Made by a program: the position numbers and the translations under genes. From positions 138,232 through 202,231 of the forward strand of contig JAIXQG010000002.1 in NCBI GenBank assembly GCA_027485835.1: DNA of 64,000 nucleotides, given 5' to 3'. The notes below the pieces were generated by a model. The model had not been told where the DNA came from. It was given only the letters and a program-made list of their open reading frames with translations, and made no database searches. This document shows positions 1 to 26,703 of the stretch, piece after piece. The stretch is from Alphaproteobacteria bacterium. Its GTDB lineage: Bacteria > Pseudomonadota > Alphaproteobacteria > UBA2136 > UBA6156. Numbering within the stretch: the first letter of the stretch is position 1; every line of letters starts with the position of its first letter.

Positions 1-198
1 AAAGGCGAGCAACTGGTGCTGTTCACAACTGAGGCTAAGGCGACGAAAGAGGCCTTCCGTACCTTTGCCAAGGCCAAGGGTGCGGCCGAGCTGATGTTCC
101 CGCGTCACCTGAAAATCATCGATAAGCTACCGACGCTGGCGACGGGGAAAGTGAATTATCCCAAGCTGACGGAGATGGCAGACGAGGTTATTAAGTAA
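1..198 (+). CDS. C-terminal fragment of an AMP-dependent synthetase/ligase (acyl-CoA/acyl-ACP synthetase family); 5' end lies outside the window
   Basis: ORF runs in frame from the window edge. The C-terminal motif 'LPTLATGKVNYPKL' is typical of the AMP-binding-enzyme C-terminal domain. A hairpin + T-run terminator follows at ~214-236. Confidence 0.45.
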   Translation, partial: KGEQLVLFTTEAKATKEAFRTFAKAKGAAELMFPRHLKIIDKLPTLATGKVNYPKLTEMADEVIK

Positions 199-213
199 CC
201 TCTCTATGAAGAA

Positions 214-236
214 ACGGCCCTTTGGGGCCGTTTTTG
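214..236 (+). terminator. rho-independent terminator (aaacggccc-tttg-gggccgttt + T-run)
   Basis: GC hairpin followed by tttttgtt immediately after the stop of the upstream + strand CDS. Confidence 0.5.
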
Positions 237-237
237 T

Positions 238-531
238 TCAGGCACATGTGACGAACCATAATGCGAGGAGACACAGTGCTGCGGTGCCGAGGATGAGCCA
301 GACGATACGGTCAACATTCCTTTTCCACTGTTCACTGCGCTCTGGCGATTGCAGATTTTTCCGAAAGAGAAGGATAAAGACCAAAAGGATAGCCGAAACG
401 ACCAAGCGTATATCGGTATTCGTGGTAACTGGCCAAATAAAGGTGGTAACGACGCATCCCAGCAATACAGATACGATGCCATAACGCATCCTATTCCACC
501 CCTTGGGGCTTAAAGGACTGTTGAGATTCAT
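238..531 (-). CDS. small 3-TM membrane protein (97 aa), translationally coupled to hemB
   Basis: Its ATG (531..529) overlaps the hemB stop as TAATG. The product has three hydrophobic helices. The region is visibly AT-richer than hemB. Confidence 0.45.
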   Translation of the reverse strand: MNLNSPLSPKGWNRMRYGIVSVLLGCVVTTFIWPVTTNTDIRLVVSAILLVFILLFRKNLQSPERSEQWKRNVDRIVWLILGTAALCLLALWFVTCA

Positions 532-1508
532 TATTCAGCCAGCCAGCGCGCCACTTTGGGAGCAAAGTAGGTGATGAGGATGTCGGCACCGGCGCGGCGG
601 AGGGAAGTCATGCTTTCCATCACCACGCGCTTTTCATCGAGGGCGCCTTTTTCAAAGGCGTAGCACATCATGCTGTACTCGCCGCTCACTTGGTAGGCCG
701 CCAGCGGCATGTTGGATTGCTGGCGGATGCGGGCGAGGATGTCGAGATAGAACATGCCCGGCTTGACCATCAGGATGTCGGCGCCTTCGGCTTCGTCCAG
801 TTCCGCCTCTATCAGCGCCTCACGGGCGTTAGCAGGGTCCATTTGGTAGGTTTTACGGTCGCCCTTAAGGTCGCACCCCGCGGCGGCACGGAACGGCCCG
901 TAAAGGCCACTGGCAAACTTGCTGGCGTAGGCCATGATGGGGGTATGCTCGAAGCCTTCGGCGTCGAGGCGTTCGCGAATGGCGGCAATCTGGCCGTCCA
1001 TCATGGCGGAGGGCGCGACAATATCGGCCCCCGCGCGGGCGCAGATGTAGGCCTGCTGGGCGAGATTTTCCAAGGTATGGTCGTTATGCACGTGGCCGTC
1101 AGCGGTTAATACGCCGCAGTGGCCGTGGCTGGTGTACTCGCAGAAGCAGTTGTCGGAGATCACATTCATATCCGGACAGGCATCCTTGGCGCGGCGGATC
1201 ATCCGCGCCAGCAGGCCGTCGTCTTTGAGGCTATCCGACCCCGTTTCGTCTTTATGGTGGCTGACGCCGAACAGCAGAATGCTGCGGATACCGGCGGCGT
1301 AGGCCTCCTTCACGGCCTTATCCATGGTTTTTTCCGGATGGCGGAAAATGCCCGGCATGGAGGAAATCGGTGTGTTTTCCGAGATGCCTTCTTCAATGAA
1401 CATCGGGTAGACCAGCTGGCTGGCGTTCAGCTGGGTTTCGCGCACCATGGCGCGCAGGGTTTCGGTGCGGCGCATGCGGCGCGGGCGGTAGGGCAGGTCG
1501 AAGGTCAT
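531..1508 (-). CDS. hemB: porphobilinogen synthase (delta-aminolevulinic acid dehydratase)
   Basis: 325 aa with N-terminus '[20 protein letters not shown]...[10 protein letters not shown]', the classic HemB signature. Its start ATG overlaps the hemA stop (ATGA). Confidence 0.93.
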
Positions 1509-2728
1509 GAGGCGAGCTTTCGGTTGAGGTTGGATAACTGGATACTGAGCGCTTGCGTCAGCTGCGCGATGTGCGCGGGGGTATGTAGCGGGCCGGGCGT
1601 GAGGCGCAGGCGCTCTTCGCCACGCGGCACGGTGGGGTAATTGATGGGCTGGACGTAGATATCATGCGCGGACAACAGAGCATCCGATAACTGTTTACAC
1701 AGCGCGGCCTGCCCCACGTGCAGCGGCACGATATGGCTGGGCGTTTGCACCACGGGTAAACCGGCATCCGACAGGCTTTTTTTGAGGCGTGTGGCGTTGT
1801 CGTGCAGTTGGGTGCGCAGGTCTTCGTGGGCGCGCACATAACGGATGCTGGCCAATGCCCCCGCCGCGATGCTGGGCGGAATGGCAGTGGTGAAGATGAA
1901 GCCGCCACCAACGCTGCGGATGAAATCGATACACGCCGCGCTGGCGGCAATGTAGCCGCCAATCACGCCAAAGCCCTTAGCTAATGTGCCTTGGATGATA
2001 TCGATACGCTGCGCGAGGCCAAGCTTGGCCGCCACCCCTGCCCCTTGCGGGCCGTAGAGGCCGACGGCATGGACTTCGTCGAGATACGTGAGGGCGCCGT
2101 ATTCTTGGGCGAGGTCGCAGATGGCCTCGATAGGCGCGATATCGCCGTCCATAGAATAAACCGATTCGAAGGCGATGATCTTGGCTTGCTCCTTCGGGTA
2201 CAGCCTCAGCTTGGCTTCCAAATCGGCAAGGCCGTTATGCTGAAACACCTGCTTTTGGGCGCGGCTTTGACGGATGCCTTCAATCATCGAGGCGTGGTTT
2301 TTGGTATCGGAGAAGATGATGCAGTCCTTCAGGTTTTGGCCCAACGCCCCCAATGTGGTGGTGTTGGCCAAGTAGCCGCAGCCGAACAACAGGGCGGCCT
2401 CTTTGCTGTGGAGGTCGGCTAGCTCGGCCTCCAGCTCCACATGAAGAGGTGTGGTGCCGGAGATATTGCGCGTGCCCCCTGCCCCCGCGCCAAAGGCGTG
2501 CAAGGCCTGCTGCATAGCTTGCAGCACCACGGGGTGGCGGCCCATGCCAAGGTAATCGTTGCTGCACCACACGGTGACGTGGGCGGGCGCGGTTTGAGAG
2601 GCTTCTGGCAGGCCATGGAACGCCATGGGCGGCAGAGCCATATCGCGCTGCATGGGGTGGAAATAGCGGTAGCGGCCTTCGTTCTGGATCTGCTCCAGTT
2701 TATCGGCAAAAAACGTCTCGTAATTCAT
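1505..2728 (-). CDS. hemA: 5-aminolevulinate synthase (ALAS, PLP-dependent alpha-oxoamine synthase)
   Basis: Start chosen at [23 protein letters not shown] (ALAS N-terminal signature). PLP-transferase family motifs run throughout. ALAS-type hemA is characteristic of Alphaproteobacteria. Confidence 0.88.
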
Positions 2729-2871
2729 CGTCGGCTTGTTATTTTTCACATCTCTTGGCAACGGCCCCAGCGTAGGAGTCTTTACGGGTGCCCACAATGC
2801 GAAAAACCTTTGCCCGCTTAAGGTGTAATCAGAATAGGGAATTATTCAGAATTCCGCTTGATCTTCATCAC

Positions 2872-2895
2872 ACAAAAACGGCCCCGAAGGGCCGC
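2872..2895 (-). terminator. rho-independent terminator downstream of rplQ
   Basis: Minus-strand reading gcggccc-ttcg-gggccgt followed by ttttgtg directly after the rplQ stop. Confidence 0.55.
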
Positions 2896-2914
2896 TTTTG
2901 GAGAATTCGTCGGA

Positions 2915-3277
2915 CTATTCCGGCAAGCGGGTCAGTTGGATGACGGCCATATCGGCAGCGTCGCCCTGACGGAAGCCAGCCTTCATCACGCGGGTGTAAC
3001 CACCGTTAACGCCAACAAAACGCGGAGCCACTTCTTCGAACAGCTTCTTCAGCAGAACCGGGTTGGTGATGTCCTTAGCTACATCGCGGCGGTTGGCGAC
3101 AGTGTCGACACGGGCCTTGGTGATGAGGGGTTCGATCACGCGACGGAGATCCTTCGCCTTGGGCAAGGTGGTCTTGATGGTGCCGTGCTCGATGATGTTC
3201 ATGGCCAAGCCGCGCAGCAAGGCTTTGCGGGCCGTGGTGTCGCGGCCGAAGTGACGGTGGGATACGCCGTGAGTCAT
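2915..3277 (-). CDS. rplQ: 50S ribosomal protein L17
   Basis: 120 aa with 'HRHFGRDTTARKALLRGLA...KTTLPKAKDLRRV', a bL17 match. An SD (caggagt) precedes the ATG. Confidence 0.95.
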   Translation of the reverse strand: MTHGVSHRHFGRDTTARKALLRGLAMNIIEHGTIKTTLPKAKDLRRVIEPLITKARVDTVANRRDVAKDITNPVLLKKLFEEVAPRFVGVNGGYTRVMKAGFRQGDAADMAVIQLTRLPE

Positions 3278-3367
3278 GGGTATTACTCCTGAATTCTCTA
3301 ATTACTTGGGGCTATATGGGGGGATTTGGCGGGAGTGTCAAGGATTTTTGGTATTAAAATATAAAGC

Positions 3368-3395
3368 TTGACTTAAGGTATACAATAAATATTAT
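3368..3395 (+). promoter_or_regulatory. sigma-70-like promoter (TTGACT-N16-TATTAT) for the inserted membrane-protein gene
   Basis: Read directly from sequence: ttgact at 3368-3373 and tattat at 3390-3395. An SD (acggaga) precedes the ATG at 3432. Confidence 0.4.
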
Positions 3396-3431
3396 CCCAA
3401 CACACATTGACGTGCAAAACGGAGAAACATC

Positions 3432-3827
3432 ATGCAGGTTATTGTTATTCTTCTGATCGGTTGCCTTATATTCAACCTTTTTTGGGGTAGAATTCTGTTA
3501 GCCTTGATGGAATCGCTATCTGATTCTCCGATTCCATACTACCGCACCATCGCACTATCCTCAGTTATTTACATTGGTGCTGTCTTCTATATCCTCGGTA
3601 TCGAAGACTATCACTATTATTACAAGGAAAAAATAATGCCTGTTTTCTTTGTCTTAACGATCTTCGGGCTTTTAGTTTTCACATTCAGAAGACTGATCGC
3701 CCGCTATGCAAGATTAAGTAACGAACACGCTATCATAAACTCACGGTCGGCGATTTATGTCTCGGCAATATGGATCAGTCTTTCTATCTATGTTTTTTGG
3801 TATGAGAACTTGAAAGACTTCATATAA
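3432..3827 (+). CDS. hypothetical 4-TM membrane protein (131 aa), low-GC inserted gene
   Basis: Complete ORF with its own promoter, SD and a downstream bidirectional terminator. Composition is strongly AT-skewed relative to its neighbours. It sits between rpoA and rplQ, which are normally adjacent. Confidence 0.6.
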   Translation: MQVIVILLIGCLIFNLFWGRILLALMESLSDSPIPYYRTIALSSVIYIGAVFYILGIEDYHYYYKEKIMPVFFVLTIFGLLVFTFRRLIARYARLSNEHAIINSRSAIYVSAIWISLSIYVFWYENLKDFI

Positions 3828-3845
3828 AAAACCACGCACAAAAAA

Positions 3846-3870
3846 GGAGCTTTCGCAGCTCCTTTTTTAT
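3846..3870. terminator. bidirectional rho-independent terminator (aaaaaaggagc-tttcgc-agctcctttttt)
   Basis: Perfect hairpin flanked by an A-run on one side and a T-run on the other. It terminates both the + strand insert gene and the - strand rpoA. Confidence 0.65.
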
Positions 3871-3880
3871 TTAACTTTAC

Positions 3881-4897
3881 TTAGAAAGTCTTGTCGAGAC
3901 GACGTGCGAGGTCTTCGATGTTTTCCGGCGGCCAGCTTTCGAGACGCATACCGAGGCCCAGACCCATTTGACCGAGAACGTCTTTGATCTCGTTGAGGGA
4001 CTTACGGCCGAAGTTCGGGGTCTTCAGCATTTCACTTTCGGACTTCTGCACCAGGTCGCCAATGTAAACGATGTTTTCGTTCTTCAGGCAGTTGGCGGAA
4101 CGGACGGACAGTTCCAGCTCGTCCACCTTCATCAGCAGGTGCGGGTTGATGTCGATCACGTCATCGCGGCGGCCAGCGTCGTCGGCGATGTCTTCGAAGT
4201 TAATGAAGACGCCGAGTTGGTCTTGCAGAATGCGGGCGGAGAAGGCCAAAGCGTCTTCCGGAGCCACTACACCGTTGGATTCGATTTCCATGACCAGCTT
4301 GTCGTAGTCGGTGATCTGACCCACGCGGGCGTCGGAGACCTTGAAGCTGACGCGACGGATCGGGCTGTAGATGGCGTCGATCAGGATGGAACCCGGTTGG
4401 CGCTCTTCGCTCTTGCGGTCGGCAGCCGGAGAGTAACCCTTGCCGGTACCTACGGTCAGCTCGATGCGCAGTTCGCCCTTTTCAGCCAAAGTGGCGATCA
4501 GGTGGTTCGGATCGATGATTTCGATATCGTGGGTGGTTTCAATATCGGCAGCAGTGACCGGACCGGCACCCTTCTTGTGCAGGGTTACGGTTTTCGCCTC
4601 GGTGGCGTGGCTGCGGATAGCCATGGCCTTGAGGTTGAGAATGATTTCCGTCACGTCTTCCATCACGCCCGGCAGGGTGGTGAACTCGTGCACAGCGCCA
4701 TCGATCTTGATGGAGGTGATAGCGGAGCCTTGCAGGCTGGAGAGCAGTACACGGCGCAGAGCGTTACCGAGGGTGTGGCCGAAACCGCGCTCGAGCGGCT
4801 CGATGGTGAAGGTGGCAAATTTCTTCGGATCAGTACCAGCGCTCATACCTACCTTGGTGGGTTTGATGAGCTCTTTCCAGTTGGCTTGAATCTGCAT
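3881..4897 (-). CDS. rpoA: DNA-directed RNA polymerase subunit alpha
   Basis: 338 aa with '[16 protein letters not shown]...[43 protein letters not shown]', conserved RpoA NTD and CTD. Confidence 0.97.
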
Positions 4898-4995
4898 GGG
4901 GTATCGCCTTCCTTAGCCTTTTTATATGAATCTTTTGCACCGAAATCTACGTGGTTAGGGCCGTCGGTGCAAGCGGCCCTAACTACGGTCAACCT

Positions 4996-5406
4996 TTAAA
5001 CGCGGCGGCGCTTACGGGGTTGGCAACCGTTGTGCGGGATGGAGGTCACATCGCGGATGGTCACAATCTCAAAACCTTGAGCTTGCAGACCACGCAGTGC
5101 GCTTTCGCGGCCGGAGCCGGGACCACGCAGCAGCACGTCGAGAACGCGCACGCCGTGCTCCTTAGCGGAACGGGCGGCACCTTCAGCGGCCAGCTGAGCA
5201 GCAAACGGGGTGCCCTTGCGGGAGCCCTTGAAACCAGCCTGACCGGCAGAGGACCACGCAATGGCGTTACCCTGAGCATCGGTGATGGTCACGATGGTGT
5301 TGTTGAAGCTGCTGTAAATGTGAGCGGTTGCCGAAGAAATATTCTTACGGTCTTTACGCTTGGTGGGACGGGCGGACGAAGCGCCCTTCTTTTGCGGAGT
5401 AGCCAT
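4996..5406 (-). CDS. rpsK: 30S ribosomal protein S11
   Basis: 136 aa uS11 signature ([18 protein letters not shown]...[14 protein letters not shown]). Confidence 0.97.
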
Positions 5407-5431
5407 GATTCTGTGTCCTTACCTTCTTGGC

Positions 5432-5803
5432 TTACTTCTTCTTACCCGCAACGCCAGCTTTACGCGGGCCCTTACGAGTACGTGCGTTGTGGCGGGTGCT
5501 TTGACCACGGACCGGCAGACCCTTACGGTGACGCAGACCACGGTAGCAACCAAGGTCCATCAGACGCTTGATGTTGAGGCTTACCTGACGACGCAGGTCA
5601 CCTTCTACGATAAAGCTGGCGTCGATCACGTTACGGATACGACTGACTTCATCGTCGCTCAGGGTGTTGACGCGACGGGTCGGTTCAACTTGAGCTGCTT
5701 CTAGAATTTTATATGTGTTTGCCGGACCAACGCCATAGATATAGGTGAGAGCCACCCATACTTGCTTGTCAGTCGGAATATTAACACCCGCGATACGTGC
5801 CAC
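5432..5803 (-). CDS. rpsM: 30S ribosomal protein S13
   Basis: 123 aa with '[26 protein letters not shown]', uS13. Confidence 0.97.
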
Positions 5804-5890
5804 GAGCTACACTCCTACTTTGAAATTAACTTGAAACTGATGCGACACTGTGCCGCACGCAGCCGACCAACTCAGGCAAGCCAACAAGGC

Positions 5891-6058
5891 TTATGCCTGG
5901 GTAACGCTGTAACGACCGGTCTTACCGTTCTTACGCTTGTCGCGCATGACGATACGAATACGGCCCAGGAACTTACCGGCCTTGTTACGGGTACGACGTA
6001 CCACTTGCAGTTTACGGTCGCGCACTTTTTCAGCGCGGATGGACGAGGCGTAACGCAT
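5891..6058 (-). CDS. 55-aa very basic protein in the rpmJ (bL36) syntenic position; possible divergent Cys-less bL36-like ribosomal protein
   Basis: Not in the ORF track (<60 aa). Translated manually: MRYASSIRAEKVRDRKLQVVRRTRNKAGKFLGRIRIVMRDKRKNGKTGRYSVTQA. An SD (aaggaag) precedes the ATG. Codon usage is CGT-rich like the neighbouring r-protein genes. It shows weak pattern similarity to bL36 (MKVRxSVK...RRGR...). Confidence 0.4.
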   Translation of the reverse strand: MRYASSIRAEKVRDRKLQVVRRTRNKAGKFLGRIRIVMRDKRKNGKTGRYSVTQA

Positions 6059-6244
6059 CTTCAATTACTTCCTTACACTAGAGGGTCAGAGGGGGCATTA
6101 ACAGGTAAAAAACATCTTGGCAAGTATAAAAATCATCTTACCCGTGTGGCTTTTTGCCCCTGCTGGTACCAGCTTCCTCAAACCTCTCGGTTTAACTCTT
6201 GAATTTGCGGTGAAACGGTTGATTCACCACACGACATTGCTGCC

Positions 6245-6505
6245 TTATTTTTTGGCGGGAGGAGTAGCCGGCGCGCCGAGCGACGGTTCCTTTTTACGAT
6301 ACGTAATACGACCCTTGGTGAGGTCATACGGAGTCATTTCCACGGTTACCTTGTCGCCTTCCAGAATACGGATGTTATTCTGGCGCATTTTACCGGAAAT
6401 GTGGCACAGCACAGTCGGGCCGTTTTCCAGTTTAACGCGGAACAAAGTATTGGGCAGCGACTCGGTCACTACACCTTCGAATTCGATTACATCATCTTTA
6501 GCCAT
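6245..6505 (-). CDS. infA: translation initiation factor IF-1 with a short Pro/Ala/Lys-rich C-terminal extension
   Basis: The '[29 protein letters not shown]...[32 protein letters not shown]' S1-like IF-1 core, plus a '[15 protein letters not shown]' tail. Confidence 0.9.
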
Positions 6506-6522
6506 GGCGCGGGTTTAACGCA

Positions 6523-6558
6523 GTTTTCCGCATAAAGCAAGGGGCCTTAGGGCCCCCT
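6523..6558 (-). terminator. hairpin (aagggggcc-ctaa-ggcccctt) between adk and infA; attenuator or weak terminator
   Basis: Strong GC hairpin, but the downstream T-run is poor. Confidence 0.3.
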
Positions 6559-6573
6559 TGTTGAAGCGAAGCT

Positions 6574-7221
6574 CTATTTAGCCCCGAGAAGTTGCAGAAT
6601 ATGCTGATAGACATCCTCGATATTGGCCATGCCATCGAGTGTCACCAAGCGCTGCTGGGCCAAGTAATAGCCCAATACCGGCGCAGTCTGCTGGTTGTAG
6701 ACATCCAGACGGTGACGCACCACGTCCGGCTTGTCGTCGTCGCGCTGGATCAGCTTCTCGCCGGATTCATCGCAAATCCCAGCCACTTTCGGGGGGTTGA
6801 AGTCCTTGTGATAGACCTTCTTGCTCTTCGGCGCGTACAAGCGTCCTGCACGGCGCTCAATCAGCGCCTCGTCGTCCACTTTCAGCTCAATTACCTTGTC
6901 TAACTTCAAATGATGGTTCTGTAGCCATACATCCAGCGCCTCAGCCTGCGCCACAGTACGTGGGTAGCCATCTAGAATCACGCCGTTCTGGCAGTCCGGA
7001 TCTTCCAAACGCTCGAACACCAGTCGGTTAACCAGCTCGTCGTTGACGAGATCGCCCGCTTCCATCACCGACTTCACTTCAACACCCACCGGCGTTTCGG
7101 CGGCAATCGCAGCGCGGAACATATCGCCGGTACTTAGCGCGGGAATACCGAACTTTTCCATCAACTTGGCAGACTGGGTCCCCTTGCCGGCGCCGGGGGG
7201 GCCGAACAGAACAATAATCAT
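6574..7221 (-). CDS. adk: adenylate kinase
   Basis: N-terminal P-loop 'GPPGAGKGTQ' followed by conserved Adk motifs. Confidence 0.95.
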   Translation of the reverse strand: MIIVLFGPPGAGKGTQSAKLMEKFGIPALSTGDMFRAAIAAETPVGVEVKSVMEAGDLVNDELVNRLVFERLEDPDCQNGVILDGYPRTVAQAEALDVWLQNHHLKLDKVIELKVDDEALIERRAGRLYAPKSKKVYHKDFNPPKVAGICDESGEKLIQRDDDKPDVVRHRLDVYNQQTAPVLGYYLAQQRLVTLDGMANIEDVYQHILQLLGAK

Positions 7222-7266
7222 AATGCGTCCTTAGTCCTTAATCGCTTGTTCTTATGTTATTTTTGC

Positions 7267-8646
7267 CTAGGATTTCCTGACGGGCGTGCGGATAAGACCA
7301 CCTTTGCCGCCCTTCATGCTGGTTTTCTTCAGCAGGCTTTCGTATTTCTGGGCAATCAGGGCCGATTGGATGCGGGAGACCGTATCGATCGTCACGCTCA
7401 CCATAATCAGCAGCGAGGTACCACCGATATAGAACGGCAGCGTCGCGTCGCGGTGAAGGATATCCGGCACGGCACAGATAAACGCCAGATACAGTGCGCC
7501 AATGGCGGTCAGGCGGGTTGCCACGCCATCCAGATAGCTGGCGGTGCTGGCACCGGGGCGGATACCGGGGATGAAGGCGCCGGACTTTTTGAGGTTGTCG
7601 GCCGTTTCTTCCGAGTTAAATGCTACGGTGGCCACATAGAAGAACGCGAAGAAGATAATCATGGCCACAAACAACGCCAGATACAGCGGTTTACCAGGAG
7701 TGAGCCATGCACCAATGAACTGCGCCCATGCCGACTCCGGCGCGTACGAGGACATCGTGACAGGCACCATCAACAGCGCACTGGCAAAAATGGGCGGAAT
7801 CACACCGGCAAGGTTCAGCTTGAGCGGCAGGTGGTTATTGTCGCCTGCGGTTGCCCCAAACATACCCTGACGCTTGGGATATTGAATGGCGATACGGCGG
7901 GTGGCGGTTTCCATAAAGGTAATGAAGAAGATGGCCGCAACCGCACCGATGGCGATGACAAACACCAGCAATTCGGAAATGGAACCTGTGCGGGCGAGTT
8001 CGAAGATCTGGAACACTGAGGCGGGCATAGTGGCGACGATACCGGCGAAAATCAGCAGCGAAATGCCGTTACCGATACCGCGGACGTTGATTTGCTCGCC
8101 CAACCACATAAGGAACATGGTGCCGGTGGTGATGGTAAGTGCGGTTTGCAACTGGAAGGCCAGACCGGGGTTGGTGACGAGGTTCATCACTTCGCCATTC
8201 ACAATTGCTGTTTGGTATTGAATGCCGGAAGCCAGACCAAAACCTTGCACAAAAGCAAGCACTACGGTGAGGTATCTCGTGTACTGGTTGATCTTACGAC
8301 GACCAACTTCACCTTCCTTTTTCAGCTCACTCAGCGTGGCCGAGGTTGAGGTAAGAAGCTGGATGATAATGCTGGCAGTGATGTAAGGCATGATATTGAG
8401 CGCGAACACGGCCATGCGCGAAAACGCCCCGCCGGAGAACATGTTGAACAGACCGAACAGGCCGTTTTGCAGGTTCTGCTGATAGCTGGCCAGAACAGTG
8501 ACATCGACACCCGGCAGAGGGATGTGCGTACCGAGACGGTAAATGATGAATGCAAACAGCACAAACAGGATGCGGGTGTGCAAACCTTTGGCTTTGGTGA
8601 GAAGTTCGGCGACTTCCGATTGGGAACCGAGACCGAATTGAGCCAT
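7267..8646 (-). CDS. secY: preprotein translocase subunit SecY
   Basis: 459 aa multi-TM protein with SecY motifs (GIxPYIxASII, etc.). Confidence 0.97.
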   Translation of the reverse strand: MAQFGLGSQSEVAELLTKAKGLHTRILFVLFAFIIYRLGTHIPLPGVDVTVLASYQQNLQNGLFGLFNMFSGGAFSRMAVFALNIMPYITASIIIQLLTSTSATLSELKKEGEVGRRKINQYTRYLTVVLAFVQGFGLASGIQYQTAIVNGEVMNLVTNPGLAFQLQTALTITTGTMFLMWLGEQINVRGIGNGISLLIFAGIVATMPASVFQIFELARTGSISELLVFVIAIGAVAAIFFITFMETATRRIAIQYPKRQGMFGATAGDNNHLPLKLNLAGVIPPIFASALLMVPVTMSSYAPESAWAQFIGAWLTPGKPLYLALFVAMIIFFAFFYVATVAFNSEETADNLKKSGAFIPGIRPGASTASYLDGVATRLTAIGALYLAFICAVPDILHRDATLPFYIGGTSLLIMVSVTIDTVSRIQSALIAQKYESLLKKTSMKGGKGGLIRTPVRKS

Positions 8647-8774
8647 GAAACGATAATTCTCCTAACTAAAAATACTTTCCCCTTTTACGCGAAAGGCTTG
8701 GCTACCGCAAGGTTAGTTAGCTGTTTAAGTGGCGCGCGGGTGGTGGAAATTGCGGCACTACCGGCCATAATAGG

Positions 8775-8812
8775 TAGGATAAATAACGAAACGGCGCCAC
8801 GCGGGCGCCGTT
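8775..8812 (-). terminator. hairpin (ggcgcc-cgcgt-ggcgcc) + T-rich tail downstream of the inserted ORF189
   Basis: Minus-strand reading acggcgcccgcgtggcgccgtttcgttattt. Confidence 0.4.
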
Positions 8813-8832
8813 GTTGTTCGCTTCTTAGTTTA

Positions 8833-9402
8833 CTAATGGAGAGGGTCCAGCAAAATAGGCCCCTTCTCGCCCGAGAGGATATCCACAGCTTTTGTGCTAA
8901 ATCCAAACGGATGCCCGACCGCCAAGCTACGTATGAGGGTAAGAGCCTTCGCAAGATACGGATACTCGCGATGATAACTTACTATTAAGTCCTGAATGTC
9001 CGGCGCGACTTTTGATGGATCAGGGAACCGATACACCGCCATAATGGTTGCAAACCAATGCTCCGCTACCTCCGATGACACCGTTTCATATCTCTTCAGC
9101 AACGCGACATTGTCCCGGTAACGATAGATATGCGGCAGATTGGGATAGTCCTCCGGAACAACGTCCGGCTGCCGAAGCCGCCGCGCAAAGGCGTCGTACC
9201 CTTGCCACATAATGCTTTCTTCGCAGAATTTAAATACCGCAGGCGTATCATCCTTCATAAAAATACGGGCAGAGCCCGGTACATGCGCCTGATACCAGCC
9301 ATGGTCTGCTAGAATTCTCCGAAAGGCTTCAGGCGTTTCTTCGCGATACTTATCAAACAGGCTGAGCGCCTGCCATTTCGGAATTTCGGCACGTACAAAC
9401 AT
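8833..9402 (-). CDS. hypothetical cytoplasmic protein (189 aa, aromatic-rich) inserted between rplO and secY
   Basis: Complete ORF in operon orientation. A rho-independent terminator lies upstream and a hairpin downstream. Composition is lower-GC than the flanking r-protein genes. No family recognised. Confidence 0.55.
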   Translation of the reverse strand: MFVRAEIPKWQALSLFDKYREETPEAFRRILADHGWYQAHVPGSARIFMKDDTPAVFKFCEESIMWQGYDAFARRLRQPDVVPEDYPNLPHIYRYRDNVALLKRYETVSSEVAEHWFATIMAVYRFPDPSKVAPDIQDLIVSYHREYPYLAKALTLIRSLAVGHPFGFSTKAVDILSGEKGPILLDPLH

Positions 9403-19981: not shown

Positions 19982-20422
19982 TTAGGCGGTCTGATTGTAA
20001 TGAATGTACAGCAGGGACGACAAATTGTCGCACCACCAACTTCCGATTGCAGAACTCACTTCGACCCTTCTGTTACCCGTAAACATATAGGGATACGGGA
20101 CACTGTCATCCTCCTCCTGAAAGAAGAATGATACCTTCGAAGTCTTGTTGACCGACGCGAGGTAGCTCAGCACGAAGGCATTCAGAGACTCACGTGGAGT
20201 TGGAAGATCGTCAGTCGCATTTTCAGACCCAGCAAGTTCGAGTTCGACGCCGTCGACGAAGATGATTGTATAATCATCCCCACGATATTTCTGTCTCTTG
20301 TCGATAACTTCTATTTTTTTTGCAGCATCCAGAGCTGCAATAAGTTTGTTGCGGTCTGATTCGTTGATCTGAAGGATGGTGCGGATATTGAGAAGGTCGT
20401 CAGCAAACATATCTTTCTCCAT
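19982..20422 (-). CDS. hypothetical acidic protein (146 aa), lower-GC
   Basis: Complete ORF with its own terminator. No recognisable family. AT-richer than surrounding core genes. Confidence 0.45.
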   Translation of the reverse strand: MEKDMFADDLLNIRTILQINESDRNKLIAALDAAKKIEVIDKRQKYRGDDYTIIFVDGVELELAGSENATDDLPTPRESLNAFVLSYLASVNKTSKVSFFFQEEDDSVPYPYMFTGNRRVEVSSAIGSWWCDNLSSLLYIHYNQTA

Positions 20423-20574
20423 TTGTTTTGCTGGTTATTCTGGATACCATCGGCATACCTCACGCGTAATAACAGCCCTTCGGGCCGTACAAACGGTTCA
20501 GATATGTCGATGGCAGAGCCAGTCTACATTCTTATAGCTGCTGGCACATTTTACTTAGCTGACATAAAGAAAAA

Positions 20575-20600
20575 GCCGCCCGAAGGCGACTTTCTCCTCC
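20575..20600 (-). terminator. rho-independent terminator (gtcgcc-ttcg-ggcggc + TTTTT) after the 116-aa hypothetical gene
   Basis: Read directly from sequence on the minus strand. Confidence 0.5.
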
Positions 20601-20615
20601 CCGAAGGGACGTTCG

Positions 20616-20966
20616 TTAAGCTGAGATACCGAGCTTTGCCTTGAAAAAGTTCAAGGCATCGATAGCTTCCTGCAGCGCCCGCTCTGGGCTGAGGCCGAGA
20701 GCGCGGATGTGAACGTCGGTGGAGTGCGCCGCCAGTTCAGCGGCGGCAGCGAGGAAGTCACCACGCGACGCTTGTTCCTGAGCCGCGTACATCGCGGCTT
20801 CAGGGCCGCAATTTGCGGAATCCCAATCCGTCGGTTCGACAGGAGCTGGAATGGCTTTTGTCTTCTTCACCTCATACAGGAAGCGAGCGCGAGCGCCCCC
20901 GCGTACCGGGTAAGAGGTGGCGAAGAACGAAGCGGCAGCGGCAAGATTAACAGCAGTGTTCGACAT
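20616..20966 (-). CDS. hypothetical Ala-rich protein (116 aa)
   Basis: Complete ORF bracketed by a terminator downstream and palindromes upstream. No family recognised. Confidence 0.45.
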   Translation of the reverse strand: MSNTAVNLAAAASFFATSYPVRGGARARFLYEVKKTKAIPAPVEPTDWDSANCGPEAAMYAAQEQASRGDFLAAAAELAAHSTDVHIRALGLSPERALQEAIDALNFFKAKLGISA

Positions 20967-21221
20967 GATTTTGCTCCTATGGCGTTGGTGTCGACAAAAT
21001 GATCAGTCCCTACGGGACAGAAAAACGGCTCAGTACGAGCCAGTTTCCTGTCCCGTACCTAATGGTACTGTAATTCTTTATATACAGCCTCTCCAGCCGG
21101 TTTTGAAGGCGAACTGACAGGCTTTTTTATTCGTTTTATTTCGAGTCTAATTTATTTAAAAACATACAATTAAACCTTATTAAGTATCTACTACATTAGC
21201 TTTACAGCCCTCCTTTCATGG

Positions 21222-21256
21222 TCAAAAAAGGCCCGCCGTTGCTGGCGGGCCTTGTG
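21222..21256 (-). terminator. rho-independent terminator after gcrA (aggcccgcc-agcaa-cggcgggcct + T6)
   Basis: Perfect stem followed by a T-run on the minus strand. Confidence 0.6.
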
Positions 21257-21276
21257 TCGTGATTGTGATTGGTGGT

Positions 21277-21855
21277 TTAGACCATGGGTCGGTAGCGGCT
21301 GAGGCCGCGGTCATGAAGATCCGTGAAGTGACCAATCTTGACCTTGCCATTAGAGGCTTTCAAACGCTCCAAGTGACCGACGCAGATACTTCCACCCTCT
21401 TTAGCGGCTGGGTTGCCGCAGTAGAGAGCCTGTCCGCCCAAGTCAAAGCGGTCATCGCCGGGCATAAGGTACGTTTTGCACTGACCGTCGGCCAGTTCAA
21501 GCAACGTAACCCCCCGACAGGTAAAGCTTGGCTTCGCCTCGTCTTTCTTTGGCTTTCGTGGCGTTTGGCTGCGGGGCACTACCGGTTGCAGCAGGGCGGA
21601 GTATTTGCCTCCCTTCGGACGTTTGGGTTTGGCCGCAGAGTGTGACGACTTGCCTTTTGCCGCAGGCTTTTTGGCAGAACCTGCCGCCCGCTGCTGGGTT
21701 TTGCGTGCCGGAAGCTTGAGACGATACGCCTTACCCACGACGCAATTGACGGATGGCGCCCCTAACTTTTTGGCGATTTCGCTTTTGGAAAGCCCCTCAT
21801 CCCAATACTTTTTCAGATCTTCGACCGCTTCGGCGGTCCATGAGAACTCGGACAT
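21277..21855 (-). CDS. gcrA: GcrA family cell-cycle transcriptional regulator
   Basis: 'MSEFSWTAEAVEDLKKYWDEGLSKSEIAKKLGAPSVNCVVGKAYRLKLPAR' N-terminal domain, a basic linker, and a conserved Cys-containing C-terminal domain. Confidence 0.82.
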   Translation of the reverse strand: MSEFSWTAEAVEDLKKYWDEGLSKSEIAKKLGAPSVNCVVGKAYRLKLPARKTQQRAAGSAKKPAAKGKSSHSAAKPKRPKGGKYSALLQPVVPRSQTPRKPKKDEAKPSFTCRGVTLLELADGQCKTYLMPGDDRFDLGGQALYCGNPAAKEGGSICVGHLERLKASNGKVKIGHFTDLHDRGLSRYRPMV

Positions 21856-21934
21856 GTCTTACTCCTCGTAAAGAGTCATTTAATAGGAGAAACTGGCTGC
21901 GTAGTGAGTGTTTGTAAGATGTATTTGCATAAGG

Positions 21935-21965
21935 TGCAAAAGAAAAGGGGGCTAAAGCCCCCCCT
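21935..21965 (-). terminator. rho-independent terminator (gggggggc-ttta-gccccc + T-run) after the 129-aa membrane-protein gene
   Basis: Read directly from sequence. Confidence 0.5.
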
Positions 21966-21973
21966 TCCCTCAA

Positions 21974-22363
21974 TTAAAATAGAAAACCGCTCACAAATTC
22001 CCAAACGGGCGTAAAAGGCGCCCAAAGAATTTTGATTGTCGCCCATGCGATAAGCAAGGCGCTAAAATGCATAGCTAGTAACATAAAGACACTGCAAATA
22101 TGCACCATTTCAGCCATCACTGCATAAAGCCTGAATGATTCTTCCCTAAAAAGCATCATCAGAGCCAAGAGTATCAGAAGTACTATTAAACAGGCTGAGG
22201 ACTCAATTAACATTGTCCCTCTCTGCCATGCATTTTTCTCAAGAAGTCGGTTCACATTCAGGCATTTGCCTGAGAGCTTATGCTTGCGTTTAAACCCTTT
22301 AGCCACGTTTTTTGCCTTAGAGTTCAGTTGGTTTCTTAGCTCATTTAAGAGTCCTTTTTTCAT
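21974..22363 (-). CDS. hypothetical small membrane protein (129 aa), low-GC
   Basis: Basic N-terminus plus two or three hydrophobic helices. AT-rich. Own terminator. Confidence 0.45.
   Translation of the reverse strand: MKKGLLNELRNQLNSKAKNVAKGFKRKHKLSGKCLNVNRLLEKNAWQRGTMLIESSACLIVLLILLALMMLFREESFRLYAVMAEMVHICSVFMLLAMHFSALLIAWATIKILWAPFTPVWEFVSGFLF

Positions 22364-22578: not shown

Positions 22579-26703
<4,125 letters not shown>

Follow-up and report, generated by a model that had tools for sequence, protein, structure and literature searches.

We analysed a stretch of 64,000 nucleotides (hereafter the window; contig JAIXQG010000002.1, positions 138,232 to 202,231) from an alphaproteobacterium belonging to an uncultured genus for which only metagenome-assembled genomes (MAGs) are available. 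In it rpoA and rplQ are separated by a spacer of 603 bp (3278..3880) that carries, on the opposite strand, a gene for a 131-aa protein without known relatives. Taken as a whole, the evidence makes it likely that this orphan is a recently acquired, lineage-specific accessory gene lodged in an insulated gap whose content turns over rapidly. In this genus rpoA and rplQ would be separate transcription units, rpoA ending in a conserved intrinsic terminator and rplQ starting from its own conserved sigma-70-type promoter, and the few bases between the two would form a transcriptionally insulated gap. Foreign DNA could be tolerated there without disturbing either essential gene, with fast turnover and a different cargo in almost every species. 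In the window lineage approximately 490 bp of AT-rich DNA would have arrived by horizontal transfer once this lineage had separated from the sister species, replacing an older sense-strand cassette, and the conserved flanking genes may have served as homology arms for the exchange. An E. coli-like promoter belonging to the orphan gene itself, arranged back to back with that of rplQ, would drive its transcription; the transcript would be translated via a GGAG Shine-Dalgarno (SD) sequence into a polytopic inner-membrane protein and would be ended by the pre-existing rpoA terminator read in reverse. We infer the horizontal origin, the transcription and translation, and the replacement by recombination from the features set out below.

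Composition of the rpoA-rplQ spacer

Both flanking genes lie on the minus strand, rpoA (RNA polymerase alpha subunit, 338 aa) at 3881..4897 with matches to Pfam PF01000, PF03118 and PF01193, and rplQ (ribosomal protein L17, 120 aa) at 2915..3277 with a match to PF01196 Ribosomal_L17 (E 1.2e-32). The RplQ of the window is 100 % identical in amino acid sequence to that of the sister species. A previous sequence-only reading of this DNA had described an AT-rich segment of about 600 bp splitting the two genes, and its coordinates were exact. The lineage-specific AT-rich segment, which includes the promoter, SD sequence and open reading frame (ORF) of the orphan gene, occupies 3349..3839 on the plus strand, has a GC content of 0.37, and shows homology only to the identical contig L081. 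The GC content over 3349..3876 is also 0.37, the lowest for any stretch of that length in the window; a value this low is reached in only 0.03 % of windows of equal length, every one of which overlaps 3349..3876. For comparison, the window mean is 0.562 with a standard deviation of 0.045 (300-bp windows), and in sliding windows the value drops from about 0.58 in the flanks to 0.37–0.41 in the spacer. The deviant GC that the sequence-only reading supposed is therefore real when computed. By codon position the 131-aa ORF has GC values of 0.38, 0.31 and 0.46, the last (GC3) lying below the range of 0.52–0.79 found in seven neighbouring genes.

The gap across relatives

Relatives were sought with an RpoA scan using one genome per species, which yielded two close and many distant ones, and then by exact-protein look-ups and an RpoA homologue search. 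Loci with an RpoA less than 76 % identical to that of the window were considered to lie outside the clade, and in these 147 alphaproteobacterial loci the rpoA-rplQ gap has a median length of 48 bp and is shorter than 250 bp in all except one. The exception, L072 (3852..4415), is an unrelated AT-rich alphaproteobacterial MAG with a 567-bp gap holding only ORFs of 55 aa or less. A scan of metagenome contigs with RpoA produced no close relatives (best identity 67 %), and these contigs were used only as extra outgroup controls. Hence, the description of this junction as invariant holds outside the clade but not inside it, where no other interval of the locus varies as much as this gap.

The clade shows nine unrelated cargoes, four gaps free of cargo and two lost linkages. 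Gaps are 45–176 bp long without cargo and 559–2080 bp with it, rpoA and rplQ being unlinked in the remainder, and the cargo proteins are mutually unrelated by blastp. The antisense 131-aa orphan is found in the window and the identical L081 (RpoA 100 %), while members of the sister species (L004/L082–L085, L088 and L089; RpoA 99 %) carry a soluble 115-aa orphan in the sense orientation and L086, from the same species, has a 176-bp gap with no ORF. A 133-aa orphan, again in the sense orientation, is present in L184 (97 %). Four different states occur at 96 % RpoA identity, namely three antisense genes in 2.07 kb (L186), an empty gap of 114 bp (L170/L171), a free-standing 101-aa protein resembling the alpha C-terminal domain (alpha-CTD; L172/L173), and a DUF6524 protein with four transmembrane (TM) segments together with a 334-aa secreted protein in 2.08 kb (L180). 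An anchored, disordered protein of 149 aa is encoded antisense in L174–L176 (95 %). Among the more distant members, rpoA is followed by rpmI-rplT-pheS in L177–L179 (88 %) and by glutaredoxin and rpmB in L182 (85 %), with rplQ elsewhere in both cases; L181 (87 %) has a 1.14-kb gap with a 54-aa TM ORF, L001 (81 %) has 1.73 kb encoding a 23S_rRNA_IVP four-helix-bundle protein and an S24/UmuD-like protein, L183 (78 %) has a 169-bp gap with no cargo, and L187 (76 %) has a compact gap of 45 bp. The comparison of spacers confirms that the AT-rich segment is specific to the window lineage. The same core flanks enclose differing content, and the window cargo is compositionally atypical and absent from the sister species, as in hotspots of horizontal gene transfer (HGT).

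The 15 differences between two sublineages in the 115-aa orphan of the sister species comprise 13 synonymous and 2 non-synonymous changes, which indicates purifying selection, and hence the cargo at this position can consist of real, selected genes. The 101-aa protein of L172 (5137..5442, plus strand; also in L173) contains an RNA polymerase alpha C-terminal domain (Pfam, E 8e-8) and is 34 % identical to RpoA residues 258–336, collinear to the very C-terminus, which suggests that the 3' end of rpoA was duplicated and the copy then diverged. The two sense orphans of 115 aa (L082) and 133 aa (L184) align collinearly in BLASTP with 23 % identity, at an E value of 0.31.

Taxonomic labels in the clade are inconsistent. 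The L004/L082 contig (VAFM01000001.1), from the public genome nearest to the window, is labelled as a 'Blastochloris viridis' MAG, which is probably wrong as genuine Hyphomicrobiales RpoA is only about 60 % identical, and other clade members carry the labels Pseudomonas, Pseudomonadales or Pseudomonadaceae. The nearest other RpoA relatives in the scan were Alphaproteobacteria and Magnetococcales-like MAGs (72 %).

A predicted host terminator and a predicted host promoter frame the gap

A predicted intrinsic terminator hairpin, with a perfect 12-bp stem, a 5-nt loop, an A-run and a T-run, lies at 3840..3868 and can be read on both strands. Its folding energy is -14.6 kcal/mol on the plus strand and -19.3 kcal/mol on the minus strand (z -5.1 and -3.7), and no shuffled sequence was equally stable. 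A homologous hairpin is located directly 3' of rpoA in all nine of the genus members aligned (consensus AAAAAGGAGCCGCAAGGCTCCTTTTT), with compensatory stem changes in L172, L180, L184 and the window, and the hairpin with its A-run and T-run is also found in L170, where the gap is empty. By form and conservation, then, the predicted bidirectional terminator is the conserved rpoA terminator of the host genus and not part of the cargo. Because it is genus-wide and present in an empty gap, it provides no evidence for a self-contained cassette. The perfect hairpin folding on both strands that was described from the sequence does exist, though its assignment to the cassette is not supported. The accompanying proposal that rpoA transcripts are stopped before rplQ agrees with the predicted terminator, but such termination was probably in place before the cassette arrived.

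The second element of the frame is the rplQ leader and promoter block (3278..3348, minus strand), delimited by an alignment of 11 sequences and by a blastn breakpoint at 3348. The predicted elements, all on the minus strand, are a -35 hexamer CTTGAC (3342..3337), a 17-nt spacer, a -10 hexamer CCATAT (3319..3314) and an SD sequence AGGAG (3290..3286). In the eleven clade sequences, CTTGACAC is invariant 5' of rplQ and is followed by a variable spacer, an invariant CATA, and then a conserved leader and SD sequence. The block, CTTGACAC-N15-CCATA, extends down to 78 % RpoA identity and also occurs in L170, L086 and L183, which have no cargo. Its motif occurs once in the window where 0.03 occurrences are expected, and one resembling it lies 5' of rpmI in L177, in which rpmI comes after rpoA. 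From this conservation and form we infer that rplQ has its own conserved sigma-70-type promoter. Neither the terminator nor the promoter element was found in L187, with its compact gap, or in more distant Magnetococcales-like loci. The insertion had been thought to create a need for a new rplQ promoter, and this is contradicted by a block shared among 11 relatives that include cargo-free ones; rpoA and rplQ appear to have been uncoupled already in the clade, independently of the window cassette. A canonical co-transcribed alpha operon (rpsM-rpsK-(rpsD)-rpoA-rplQ), which has a short spacer, was considered and set aside for this locus, where the spacer is 603 bp and contains a terminator and a promoter block.

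History and origin of the window cassette

The window and the L081 contig are 100 % identical over 8.3 kb, insert included. Core genes of the window share 87–92 % DNA identity with the species represented by L082 (RpoA 99 %) and the two are, on this basis, sister species. In blastn comparisons homology with the sister ends at 3877 and restarts at 3348, and the sister has its unrelated 115-aa gene, on the other strand, in the same place. In the sense cassettes of L082, L172 and L184 a second terminator (AGAGCCGyCyCGTGCGGCTCTTTTT) lies just 5' of the rplQ promoter. L086 retains only its T-run, and the L086 gap looks like a deletion derivative. This second terminator is absent from the window, yet the window groups with L082/L085 in a neighbour-joining tree of RpoA (of low resolution), and so it is most likely that an older occupant, consisting of a sense ORF and the second terminator, was replaced in the window lineage by the AT-rich antisense cassette. 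A recent replacement also fits the unameliorated composition of the cassette. The event would then differ from the insertion into a virgin junction originally envisaged, while horizontal acquisition as such is borne out by the lineage-specific presence and the deviant GC and GC3 from which it is deduced.

Alternatively, the 131-aa gene might be ancestral to the clade and have been lost or replaced everywhere else; the gap is occupied in most crown-group members, and some occupant may thus be old. Apart from the identical L081, the gene is absent from this junction in the relatives and is confined to one lineage; its GC3 of 0.46 would be unexpected after long residence, and a better candidate for the older state is the sense ORF with the second terminator, which the sister has in common with two other lineages. 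We regard an ancestral origin as highly improbable. Still harder to credit is an assembly or binning artefact, in the form of a chimeric join inside a contig. The metagenomic source and the sharp contrast in composition with the flanks could raise this suspicion, but the same 8.3 kb is present in a separately produced assembly (Logan SRR16126897, L081), though the reads are perhaps the same, the join points coincide exactly with the conserved terminator and promoter, and analogous inserts were found in more than ten independent samples.

The presence of many different single-gene units at exactly one position in related species could also be explained by a site-specific mobile cassette aimed at the rpoA hairpin or the rplQ promoter (an integron-type unit, a derivative of an insertion sequence (IS) or of a miniature inverted-repeat transposable element (MITE), or a terminator-targeting element), and some mobile elements do target hairpins. 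At the cassette, no terminal inverted repeats, target-site duplications or att-like sites were found, and direct repeats in the flanks are limited to one of 22 nt (77 % identity), as could arise by chance. There are no recombinase genes (integrase or transposase) in the neighbourhood and no tRNA in 1..9000, no second copy of the cassette exists in the window or in any locus compared, and the various cargoes have no common end sequences beyond the host terminators. An integron gene cassette was rejected as there is no attC-like palindrome other than the host terminator, the ORF has a promoter of its own, unlike integron cassettes, and the neighbours are ribosomal-protein and haem-synthesis genes. 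An IS, MITE or transposon was rejected for the lack of terminal inverted repeats and target-site duplication and for the single copy, and a prophage, satellite or integrative island for the lack of a tRNA in 1..9000, of any match to PHROGs below E 0.02 and of phage or viral matches. A site-specific element is therefore very unlikely, and the most likely route would be that the DNA was captured illegitimately in some member of the population and then passed on by exchange via the conserved flanks, as has been proposed for hotspots at large (PMC5635113).

The 131-aa gene and its product

The orphan ORF (3432..3827, plus strand) is the sole ORF of at least 40 aa in the spacer. ORFs of 131 aa or more arose by chance in 7 of 20000 mononucleotide shuffles and 28 of 20000 Markov-1 shuffles of the segment (0.04–0.14 %). 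The expression signals reported for the opposite-strand gene were located at the positions described, namely a predicted sigma-70-like promoter, TTGACT-N16-TATTAT (3368..3395, plus strand; 10/12 in a consensus scan), and, read from the sequence, an SD sequence GGAG (3421..3424, plus strand) 7 nt 5' of the ATG. This promoter is divergent from that of rplQ, with approximately 26 bp between the -35 hexamers. The ORF ends 12 nt from the rpoA hairpin and has no hairpin of its own, unlike the antisense cargoes of L174 and L180, which carry a second one; the orphan gene probably uses the rpoA terminator in reverse. From the length of the ORF, the expression signals and the hydropathy of the product, we consider that it probably is coding.

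A weak promoter-like match inside the cassette (TTTGCA-N16-GATAAT, 9/12, with an extended TG) faces rplQ at 3418..3391 on the minus strand, and the AT-rich end of the cassette places an A/T-rich stretch just 5' of the rplQ -35 hexamer. Judged by consensus match, either could change rplQ expression. The weak match is the sole antisense signal over the 131-aa gene, and a scan of the whole window against Rfam at gathering thresholds gave 0 matches. A type I toxin-antitoxin system was dismissed, as the product has 131 aa and three to four helices whereas the hydrophobic toxin of such systems is usually shorter than 60 aa and paired with an overlapping antisense RNA.

The hydropathy profile of the product has three strong hydrophobic segments and one weaker one, and a single-sequence AlphaFold2 model has four helices, at a low confidence (pLDDT 62). 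The four TM segments claimed earlier are supported by the three strong segments and the four modelled helices and weakened by the faint fourth segment and the low pLDDT, and three to four TM segments is a fair description. The loop at residues 86–104 is rich in arginine (four Arg), and the predicted soluble-loop peptides are ESLSDSPIPYYR, EDYHYYYKEK and YARLSNEHAIINSR. The product is probably a small inner-membrane accessory protein.

A search of membrane-protein and phage/plasmid databases had been proposed for this protein, and no relative was found in the protein-family, phage and plasmid collections searched. Only the self-match was recovered from 5.8 billion proteins in a word-indexed search and from 1.84 billion cluster representatives in an exhaustive phmmer search. 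There was no match in Pfam, NCBIfam, PHROGs (none below E 0.02), PADLOC or the PDB sequences, the best profile match being to Pfam Abhydrolase_9_N at an E value of 0.089, well short of the cutoff. With the cassette DNA as query, blastn searches of plasmid and phage collections were empty and viral contigs were likewise without a match. By blastp, the window ORF has no homology to the other cassette proteins, including the DUF6524 protein at the same position.

The lack of homologues raises the question of whether the ORF is young, perhaps of de novo origin or non-functional, a chance frame in T-rich junk DNA with a membrane appearance that follows from composition. The coding strand is 36 % T overall and 46 % T at codon position 2, and de novo membrane proteins arising from thymine-rich yeast sequence have been documented (PMC7005711). 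Shuffles of the same composition are already hydrophobic, with a grand average of hydropathy (GRAVY) of 0.46 +/- 0.22, and 11 % of them have at least three TM-like segments; the low-confidence structural model points the same way. However, the observed GRAVY of 0.89 is reached by only 2 % of the shuffles, so that composition accounts for part of the membrane character but not for all of it. Frames of this length are, as noted, rare in shuffles, the promoter, well-spaced SD sequence, ORF and terminator follow one another in the correct order and orientation, and the same-site orphan of the neighbouring species is under apparent purifying selection. Chance origin in place would also leave the source of 490 bp of 37 %-GC DNA in a 56 %-GC genome unexplained, except from outside. 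A young chance frame is thus unlikely, and an acquired accessory gene remains the reading that we favour.

Several points weigh against that reading. The frequency of TM-like segments in the shuffles is one, since T-rich DNA gives hydrophobic ORFs. The 131-aa gene is represented by a single sequence (window and L081 being the same), which lends no support from conservation or dN/dS (the ratio of non-synonymous to synonymous substitution rates) to its expression or selection. No donor was found, and what argues for horizontal origin is solely the composition and the phyletic pattern. The left junction of the cassette is ambiguous, falling within 3839–3877, because the 12 nt between the rpoA stop codon and the hairpin match no relative, and the limit could be 3876 if the hairpin came along with the cargo. 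The rplQ promoter and termination in both directions are predictions, and the rplQ -10 hexamer CCATAT fails an E. coli-style promoter scan. The CTTGAC-N17-CCATAT of the window does fit the alphaproteobacterial pattern CTTGAC-N17-CTATAT, the consensus reported for housekeeping promoters of rhizobia. Finally, L187, with its compact gap, groups with L183, where the gap is split, in the low-resolution neighbour-joining tree, which blurs the sequence of early events in the clade.

Other variable intervals in the window and the clade

Further irregularities were observed nearby. Between rplQ and hemB the window has a 5-aminolevulinate synthase gene (430 aa; 1505..2797, minus strand; the identical product in L081 matches Pfam aminotransferase class I/II). 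No such gene occurs at this position in L170, L172, L174, L186 or the sister species, in which hemB comes directly after rplQ; L181 has ispG/gcpE in this interval and L180 a 309-aa membrane orphan. As its content differs among relatives, the rplQ-hemB gap is a second variable interval. On the other side of hemB, about 330 bp of lower-GC DNA (199..530; about 50 bp in the sister) separates it from a gene for a fusion of major facilitator superfamily (MFS), acyltransferase and AMP-binding domains, and contains a small ORF, either one of 97 aa with three TM segments (238..531, minus strand) or an 83-aa plus-strand ORF called in L081.

The conserved operon cluster is broken at a second junction of the window, between rpoC and rpsJ. 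In place of the str operon (rpsL-rpsG-fusA-tuf), low-GC small genes at 19982..22363 (minus strand) come after rpoC (22579..26703), and then rpsJ. These genes encode a 129-aa TM orphan (GC 0.41), a GcrA-like protein (21277..21855; NCBIfam match of 59.5 bits, far short of the 280-bit cutoff), and orphans of 116 and 146 aa.

Between infA and rpsM, at the site expected for rpmJ (L36), lies a very basic ORF of 55–57 aa (5891..6064, minus strand) that is called in most clade loci, L187 included. It has no match in Pfam or NCBIfam, L36 models included; it might represent an L36 that has diverged strongly and gained an insertion, or else some other small protein. The gap from infA to this rpmJ-like ORF is a further insertion site in the genus, occupied in L174 (738..2563, minus strand) by genes for three secreted orphans of 154–158 aa, two of which are 34 % identical, and in L186 (2188..2562, minus strand) by one 124-aa antisense ORF. 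In L177–L179 a nicotianamine-synthase-like gene and a GNAT acetyltransferase gene (1321..2705) replace secY-adk-infA between rplO and rpsM, and the rpmI-rplT-pheS genes that follow rpoA (5018..5500) are preceded by a CTTGACAC-type promoter motif. A greedy ORF map of the window for quantifying other gaps was abandoned, as it was confounded by long antisense ORFs in GC-rich DNA.

Relation to known systems and significance

Many hotspots between core genes lack recognisable mobile-element genes, and their content has been proposed to be exchanged through recombination between homologous flanks (Oliveira et al. 2017, PMC5635113). The rpoA-rplQ gap resembles these HGT hotspots in its constant core flanks and fast-changing content. 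It differs in lying between two genes that are among the most conserved gene pairs of bacteria, in its tiny cargo, mostly one to three genes without known relatives or function rather than islands of known function, and in that the comparison here is across species of a genus (core DNA 87–92 % identical) and not strains.

Changes inside the transcription-translation operon cluster are rare, and the insertions recorded are mostly between operons (such as tusDCB, bfd-bfr and ilv-leu), with nrdHEF within the rpoBC operon; they are single ancient events involving recognisable genes (PMC8046335). As in those cases, small gene sets have been inserted, maybe preceding loss of linkage, and two lineages of the clade have lost the rpoA-rplQ linkage. 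In contrast to them, the break here is inside the alpha operon, comes with a terminator and promoter dedicated to it, and has received new cargo on many occasions. What is unusual is the site, the dedicated terminator-promoter frame and a cargo that consists mostly of tiny genes for which no relatives or function are known.

The orphan gene shares a T-rich coding strand, predicted TM helices and the lack of homologues with de novo membrane proteins (Vakirlis et al. 2020, PMC7005711). Unlike the yeast cases, its T-rich DNA is foreign to the composition of the genome and the gene has complete bacterial expression signals, which is why capture of an existing gene is favoured over de novo birth. 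A parallel in form within the clade is the DUF6524 protein gene of L180, also a small antisense four-TM gene adjoining the rpoA terminator, though there is no detectable similarity and the L180 gene has a host-like GC of 0.59 and its own terminator.

Small immunity and superinfection-exclusion proteins of bacteriocin, phage and plasmid origin are typically of about 100–180 aa with three to four TM segments, encoded by AT-rich single genes with their own promoter, and are often orphans. The 131-aa gene resembles them in these gross features only, and it differs from them in having no PADLOC, PHROGs or Pfam match and no cognate toxin, phage or plasmid context; that its product acts on its own as an accessory factor of the envelope, for instance in immunity or exclusion, is a guess, and a doubtful one. 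For annotation, the gene is best treated as a private accessory gene that is outside the transcription-translation machinery.

A more speculative idea, which we think rather improbable, is that the uncoupled gap acts as a cradle for new genes, lying between a strong terminator and a strong promoter in a part of the chromosome that is among the most highly transcribed. Foreign or duplicated DNA would be tolerated and expressed there and would repeatedly yield orphan proteins, of which the T-rich 131-aa protein would be a very young one, born in place or captured just before birth, and the alpha-CTD copy of L172 another, produced via partial duplication of rpoA.

Beyond the spacer itself, the most informative result is that, throughout the genus, a junction that hardly varies elsewhere contains a gap of high turnover. 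The order rpoA-rplQ is a textbook case of a gene order frozen by co-transcription, and this clade shows the outcome once a terminator-promoter pair breaks the coupling. It represents a natural experiment on the conservation of ribosomal operon order, one that points to expression coupling rather than to position as such, and the gap offers a compact, well-bounded place in which to study the gain, replacement and possibly the birth of bacterial orphan genes.

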